Positions 8,048 to 8,294 of a stretch of DNA of 8,294 bases are shown in pieces; within the stretch, counting starts at the first letter, position 1; every line of letters starts with the position of its first letter. The stretch is from IMG/VR virus record IMGVR_UViG_2537561605_000008; one strand, 5' to 3'. The notes under the pieces are model-generated. The model saw nothing but the letters and a program-made list of their open reading frames with translations. It was not told the origin of the DNA and made no database searches. This stretch comes from a virus (lineage: Duplodnaviria; Heunggongvirae; Uroviricota; Caudoviricetes). The position numbers and the translations under genes are program-made.

Positions 8048-8125
8048 ATGGCAAAGAATTTTGTAGAAGAAGGAAAAACGGTGGCGATTGTTGCCAGTGC
8101 AGCCATCAGCAGCGGAGATCTGTAA
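8048..8125 (+). pseudogene. Truncated small head gene, possibly the N-terminus of a DUF2190-like head decoration protein, cut by an IS end
   Basis: SD GGAG at 8038-8041 and ATG at 8048. MAKNFVEEGKTVAIVASAAISSGDL then TAA at 8123-8125, which lies inside the GTAAGCG motif at 8122-8128. The family assignment is from memory of similar N-termini and is weak. Confidence 0.4.
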
Positions 8126-8294
8126 GCGTACAGCGAGGGCCGTATTGACGGGGATGTGTTATTCAGCTGGCAGTGCTATGCGCCACGGAAGCAGTTCGCT
8201 GACCCGGTTGACCGGCCAGTCTGCTATGACGCCAAGCACATGGCGAAGGTAGCTTTCTGGATCCACGTCATTCAGTTTGCACGTCCCGATCAGG
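8122..8294 (-). mobile_element. Terminal part of an IS66-family insertion sequence (element continues beyond the window)
   Basis: Begins with GTAAGCG, which I recall as typical of IS66-family inverted-repeat termini. A minus-strand transposase C-terminus ends 37 bp inside this end. It interrupts the preceding phage ORF. Confidence 0.5.
8159..8294 (-). CDS. Transposase C-terminus (IS66 TnpC-like); N-terminal part outside the window
   Basis: Minus-strand frame is open from the window edge to the stop at 8159-8161. It translates as [44 protein letters not shown], resembling the conserved KLNxxDP...ELLPW tail of IS66-family TnpC proteins (from memory). Confidence 0.5.

Follow-up and report, generated by a model that had tools for sequence, protein, structure and literature searches.

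Evidence for an ISEc8 insertion in the head-decoration gene of an already defective E. coli O157:H7 lambdoid prophage

Insertion sequences of the IS66 family are recognized by terminal inverted repeats of 20-30 bp that begin with GTAAGCG and by 8-bp direct repeats at their insertion sites (PMC11946415, citing Ross 2021). ISEc8 is one of the two predominant insertion sequences of O157, with nine copies in Sakai and nine in FRIK804 (PMC7430833), and it is known to disrupt individual prophage genes, namely nu1 of Sp4 in Sakai (PMC2669165) and stx2A in strain 9000 (PMC6776261). Among the Sakai prophages, Sp3 was listed by Asadulghani et al. (their Table 1) as having no repressor, a disrupted Int, no replication genes, disrupted recombination genes, and a defective portal, and it neither circularizes, replicates, nor is packaged (PMC2669165).

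We compared these systems with a stretch of phage DNA of 8,294 nucleotides, hereafter the window. Three complete E. coli genomes of the O157:H7 type, NZRM3614, AC-3, and AC-5, match it at 99.96-100% identity. All three were listed at 100.0% over the whole window, while direct alignment to AC-3 gave three mismatches in 8294 positions (99.96%). AC-3 and AC-5 are E. coli O157:H7; NZRM3614 we take to be NCTC 12900, the Stx-negative O157:H7 reference strain isolated in Austria, which would fit the country field of the NZRM3614 record. With the window ending 173 bp into an insertion sequence (IS), the completeness of this element and the duplication at its far end were read in these identical public genomes, in particular at the AC-3 locus (L001), where the far IS end lies outside the window.

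The right-hand end of the window

The features that bear on the insertion are as follows, with the strand in brackets where one applies.

5934..7961 (+): fusion gene for a ClpP-like prohead protease and major capsid protein (RefSeq at L001 6985-9012, 99.96% identical; PHROG 133/4523)
7985..8004 (+): terminator-like hairpin GGCCCGTAAGGGC followed by T7, just past the capsid gene (scan match; present in the RNA fold)
8017..8035 (+): second hairpin, CAGCCCC-TGAAC-GGGGCTG, with a 7-bp GC-rich stem directly before the Shine-Dalgarno sequence (sequence; fold)
8038..8041 (+): Shine-Dalgarno GGAG, 6 nt before the ATG (sequence)
8048..8121 (+): native 5' part of the decoration gene (Phage_cement_2/DUF2190), codons 1-24 plus 2 nt of codon 25
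8114..8121: target GGAGATCT, left copy of an 8-bp target-site duplication; these 8 bp recur directly after the IS at its far end (AC-3, NZRM3614)
8122..8294 (-): right-hand (tnpC-proximal) 173 bp of ISEc8, running past the window edge (annotated ISEc8 copies are 100% identical)
8122..8143: terminal inverted repeat GTAAGCGTACAGCGAGGGCCGT (the two ends compared in L001: 13/13, then 17/22)
8123..8125 (+): IS-supplied TAA ending the 25-codon remnant (sequence; IS bases 2-4)
8159..8293 (-): 3' end of tnpC (DDE transposase), last 44 codons plus stop (translation; Pfam PF13817, E 2.4e-17)

The plus-strand open reading frame after the capsid gene starts at ATG 8048-8050, with GGAG at 8038-8041 and a 6-nt spacer, and runs for 25 codons (MAKNFVEEGKTVAIVASAAISSGDL) to the stop codon TAA at 8123-8125. 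This stop lies within GTAAGCG (8122-8128), and the coordinates given in an earlier note made from the letters of the window alone all hold. That note had also associated GTAAGCG with IS66-family termini and had likened the minus-strand frame ending at 8159 to the C-terminus of an IS66 TnpC; both readings were borne out. The 173-bp IS part matched more than 4000 records at 99-100% identity, annotated as 'IS66-like element ISEc8 family transposase' (the name ISEc8 is that of the RefSeq/PGAP annotation), and GTAAGCG is the IS terminus, with a matching far terminus in AC-3. The 44-aa minus-strand peptide, whose stop codon is 8161-8159, scored 63.2 bits (E 2.4e-17) on PF13817, DDE_Tnp_IS66_C, in Pfam. 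Since the cut-off for this profile is 30, the frame is not a product of chance. On these matches, we assign the last 173 bases of the window to the tnpC-proximal end of ISEc8 (IS66 family), lying antisense to the phage late operon.

When ISEc8 and one copy of the duplicated 8 bp were removed from L001, an open reading frame of 107 codons was restored. The restored 107-aa protein matched PF09956 (Phage_cement_2/DUF2190) over positions 1-103 of 103 (E 9e-21, 74.6 bits, cut-off 24) and PHROG 122, 'head decoration', over positions 1-109 of 109 (E 1.8e-47), whereas the 25-aa stub alone had no match in the Pfam family profile search. The reconstructed empty site was present in 1820 of the 5426 complete E. 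coli genomes, mostly at an identity of at least 99%, and was annotated there as a single 'DUF2190 family protein'. Over its first 74 nt, the intact 324-nt gene of TR01 and of about 1820 genomes has exactly the sequence of window positions 8048..8121. The last sense codon of the remnant, CTG (Leu25), takes its G from IS base 1, which coincidentally equals the native base. The proposal that an IS66-like element truncates the gene after the capsid gene is thus supported: intact homologues of the MAKNF frame have 107 aa rather than 25, and the break falls inside codon 25. A sequence search of solved structures with the decoration protein returned only a chance match to LptE (E 0.3).

The two parts of the interrupted gene carry unrelated labels in RefSeq. 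The 5' stub is mislabelled 'recombinase RecA', and the 'DUF2190 family protein' of 99 aa at L001 11573-11872 has an ATT start codon that lies 42 bp within the IS, from where its frame continues into the 3' part of the decoration gene. This hybrid frame is probably an annotation artefact, and exposing it is one use of the present case.

Upstream of the stub, RNA folding of positions 7962-8050 gave -30.2 kcal/mol (z -2.1), and the hairpins at 7985-8004 and 8017-8035 may tune the ratio of capsid to downstream transcript. An Rfam scan of the whole window returned nothing at the gathering threshold.

The complete element and its target site

In AC-3, the element occupies L001 9173-11614 and is 2442 bp long, inside the range of ~2.4-2.7 kb that is usual for the IS66 family. 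Read inwards, each of its two termini is GTAAGCGTACAGC (13/13, then 17/22 over 22 bp): the far end, as its reverse complement, is GTAAGCGTACAGCCTGAACCGT, compared with the terminal repeat listed above for window positions 8122-8143, and the inverted-repeat hallmark of the family, beginning GTAAGCG, is present at both ends. RefSeq annotates the element as complete, with tnpA, tnpB, and tnpC, and names it ISEc8 in both AC-3 and NZRM3614. The three genes of the L001 copy all lie on the minus strand, and their products were searched against Pfam over their full length, outside the window. The tnpA product matched HTH_Tnp_1 (PF01527), the tnpB product matched TnpB_IS66 (PF05717, E 1.2e-38), and the 512-aa TnpC matched DDE_Tnp_IS66 (PF03050, E 2.1e-106), with further matches to PF13817 (C-terminal), PF13007, and PF13005, including zf-IS66 and LZ_Tnp_IS66 domains. 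The three-frame IS66 organization with a DDE transposase TnpC is therefore present in L001, while the window itself holds the last 44 tnpC codons only.

The 8-bp sequence GGAGATCT flanks both ends of ISEc8 in AC-3 and in NZRM3614 (two junctions each) and occurs once only in the empty site. The predictions of the earlier note for the DNA to the right, namely an element with tnpA-tnpB-tnpC, a matching inverted repeat at its far end, and a duplication of exactly these 8 bp, all proved correct in AC-3, with the same annotated genes and the same duplication in NZRM3614. Across the 5426 complete E. coli genomes, the junction (7950-8294) was 100% identical in NZRM3614, AC-3, and AC-5 and 99.1% identical in F1273, and the site is accordingly occupied in 4 genomes, F1273 included, and empty in 1820. 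In genomes free of the IS, similarity to the window extends to 8122 and is lost thereafter. AC-5 matched the junction and the whole window at 100%, in a comparison that ends before the far end of its element.

Past the IS in AC-3 come the rest of the decoration gene, a gene for a 91-aa protein (PHROG 153, minor tail), and then the tail genes U, V-like, G, T, tape measure, M, and L, which is the normal lambdoid order. Because the gene remainder and the tail genes directly follow the IS, the head/tail module is not rearranged; the earlier suggestion of an interrupted module in a probably defective or rearranged prophage stands for the interruption and fails for the rearrangement.

The anatomy seen comprises a complete element, matched ends, an 8-bp duplication, and a presence/absence polymorphism among genomes. 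We conclude that a complete ISEc8 almost certainly transposed, as a simple insertion, into codon 25 of the 107-codon head-decoration gene of an O157:H7 lambdoid prophage. In the IS66 family, TnpA and TnpB have accessory roles and TnpC makes cuts staggered by 8 bp, and here TnpC, the DDE transposase, together with TnpA and TnpB would have cut the target in this way. The element would have entered antisense to the phage late operon, such that the window keeps its tnpC-proximal end, and the insertion would have duplicated the 8-bp target GGAGATCT. The first four IS bases, GTAA, would then complete Leu25 and supply the TAA, leaving a stub of 25 aa. The source DNA past 8294 would be expected to contain ~2269 further ISEc8 bases ending in CTGTACGCTTAC, followed by GGAGATCTGGTGCAGGTGGGC.

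Since the 25-codon frame has a good Shine-Dalgarno sequence and start codon, it could be read as a natural small gene that merely happens to be followed by something resembling an IS end. However, the restored 107-aa protein fits two family profiles end to end where the 25-aa peptide fits none, about 1820 genomes have a 324-nt gene that begins with exactly the 74 nt seen here, and the DNA downstream of the stub is 100% ISEc8; this reading is already refuted, and we give it practically no chance of being right. A further alternative is a deletion or inversion mediated by the IS, through recombination between ISEc8 copies, or a solo fragment, as the origin of this IS end; the head and tail modules would then not be contiguous. 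The window stops inside the IS, with its own far side outside it, and O157 genomes offer recombination substrates at ~12 matching places each. Against this stand the two genomes AC-3 and NZRM3614 (99.96-100% identity to the window), in which the element is complete, the same 8-bp duplication lies on both sides, and the gene remainder and tail genes come next. IS-mediated rearrangement is already refuted for the genomes examined and is very unlikely overall, such that simple transposition, into a prophage that was already dead, remains the preferred explanation.

The state of the prophage

In the portal gene (4480-5989), a lesion at 5499-5532 lengthens a run of T by one base (T5 to T6), with the added T aligned at window position 5505 in the comparison with LS4. 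Where the portal is a single 502-aa protein, as it is in LS4, this region reads GAGTTTTTCC, which is GAATTTTTTCC in the window. As a result, translation from the native start (4480) meets a stop at 5530-5532, after 350 aa, and a separate C-terminal open reading frame is annotated at 5654-5989. The same split portal is found in O157:H7 strains that do not carry this IS, for example TR01. Since the frameshift is common to such IS-free O157:H7 strains, it predates the ISEc8 insertion.

Other lesions were apparent in the AC-3 prophage. There, ybhC adjoins a frameshifted integrase gene, bet is truncated with NinE directly after it, the antiterminator gene is partial, and cI, cro, O, and P are absent, leaving no repressor or replication genes; the terminase, lysis, and tail genes are intact. 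The lipid A deacylase gene lpxR is carried as a cargo gene upstream of the window, between the truncated antiterminator and the Q gene (AC-3, L004 11836-12795).

The earlier note had called the prophage probably defective and had implied that the IS was the cause, that is, that the ISEc8 insertion inactivated an otherwise functional prophage. The insertion does disrupt the head-decoration gene, and it separates the late operon's head genes from its tail genes by a 2.4-kb antisense insert. However, the +1 T portal frameshift, which splits the 502-aa portal and leaves a first frame of 350 aa, is also present in O157 strains free of the IS, TR01 among them, and the AC-3 prophage further lacks cI, cro, O, and P, with int frameshifted, bet truncated, and its antiterminator partial. 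Moreover, Sp3 of Sakai, for which no such IS is reported, is portal-defective, Int-defective, and replication-absent and shows no circularization, replication, or packaging (PMC2669165). A causal role for ISEc8 is thus highly improbable: the prophage, rightly called defective, was already so, and ISEc8 is a late extra lesion. Because the prophage is already non-inducible, no phenotype is expected from the insertion in the decoration gene.

Between the lysis genes and the small terminase gene (DUF1441), ~670 bp of the window (1004-1677) hold no annotated gene in related genomes, and a terminator-like hairpin lies within this region near 1040-1062. The region may contain the cos site; it had no Rfam match and no lambda-type cos match, the lambda cos-like sequence GGGCGGCGACCT not being found with up to 2 mismatches allowed.

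ISEc8 insertions at this site and elsewhere

The F1273 insertion differs from that of the window. Its junctions read GGAGATCTGGT followed by GTAAGCG and CGCTTAC followed by GATCTGGTGCAGG, and its 8-bp duplication is GATCTGGT, not GGAGATCT. Orientation is the same in both, and the F1273 insertion is displaced by 3 bp to the right, at L006 3660-3690 and 6110-6130 (equivalent to window 8117-8124). As no simple indel converts one insertion into the other, the two represent independent events within 3 bp, each in a different O157:H7 strain. It is possible, if on balance somewhat doubtful, that the 11-bp GGAGATCTGGT in the decoration gene is a genuine insertion hot spot for ISEc8; if it is, ISEc8 would have a local preference for the sequence or the structure near the AGATCT palindrome, which contains a GATC Dam site.

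In general, little target specificity is ascribed to elements of the IS66 family. Ten distinct other ISEc8 sites, retrieved by a scan of species-representative genomes with 30 nt of the IS end, had flanks with no evident motif in common with GGAGATCT, and this small sample of 10 sites does not support sequence-specific targeting by ISEc8. Given these flanks, any preference of ISEc8 would be local rather than a simple consensus, and we treat the hot spot as a hint resting on two events. Some IS-end matches extended leftward by 5-11 bases; this was rejected as a sign of target preference, being a ranking artefact that arises when the best-extending copies are listed first.

Our literature search recovered the family hallmarks and other ISEc8 disruptions, and nothing on this particular insertion. 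The feature is real, ordinary, and already annotated in public RefSeq genomes. It is a further IS polymorphism among the defective prophages that E. coli O157:H7 carries and in that respect matters little. Its junction is of practical use as a strain marker, being found in only 3 of 5426 complete genomes alongside one neighbouring independent insertion, and the case may point to a local target preference of ISEc8.

Compared with ISEc8 of E. coli O157:H7, the element itself shows no difference: the 173 bp are 99-100% identical, and the AC-3 copy has tnpA-tnpB-tnpC, GTAAGCG-type repeats, and an 8-bp duplication. What sets it apart is the uncommon insertion site (4 of 5426 genomes). The interrupted gene resembles other members of Phage_cement_2/DUF2190 (PF09956, PHROG 122) in that the restored protein is full-length on both profiles and the gene directly follows the major capsid gene, but in the window only residues 1-25 are still in frame.

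The location and the published defect pattern of Sp3 (Int defective, no cI/cro, no O/P, recombination defective, portal defective) are both found in AC-3. As in Sp3 of Sakai and CP-933K of EDL933, the prophage lies on the ybhC side of the lambda attachment region, int is frameshifted, Exo/Bet is disrupted, the portal is defective, the repressor and replication genes are absent, and the terminase, lysis, and tail genes are intact (PMC2669165, Table 1). It differs in its IS, since the published description of Sp3, as far as its account of this prophage's defects extends, mentions none in the head-decoration gene (PMC2669165). The prophage thus fits Sp3/CP-933K next to ybhC, an equation made by matching features and location. 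Finally, the case resembles those of nu1 of Sp4 and stx2A in that a simple insertion of ISEc8 inactivates one prophage gene, and it differs in its target, the head-decoration gene, which belongs to an already non-inducible prophage.
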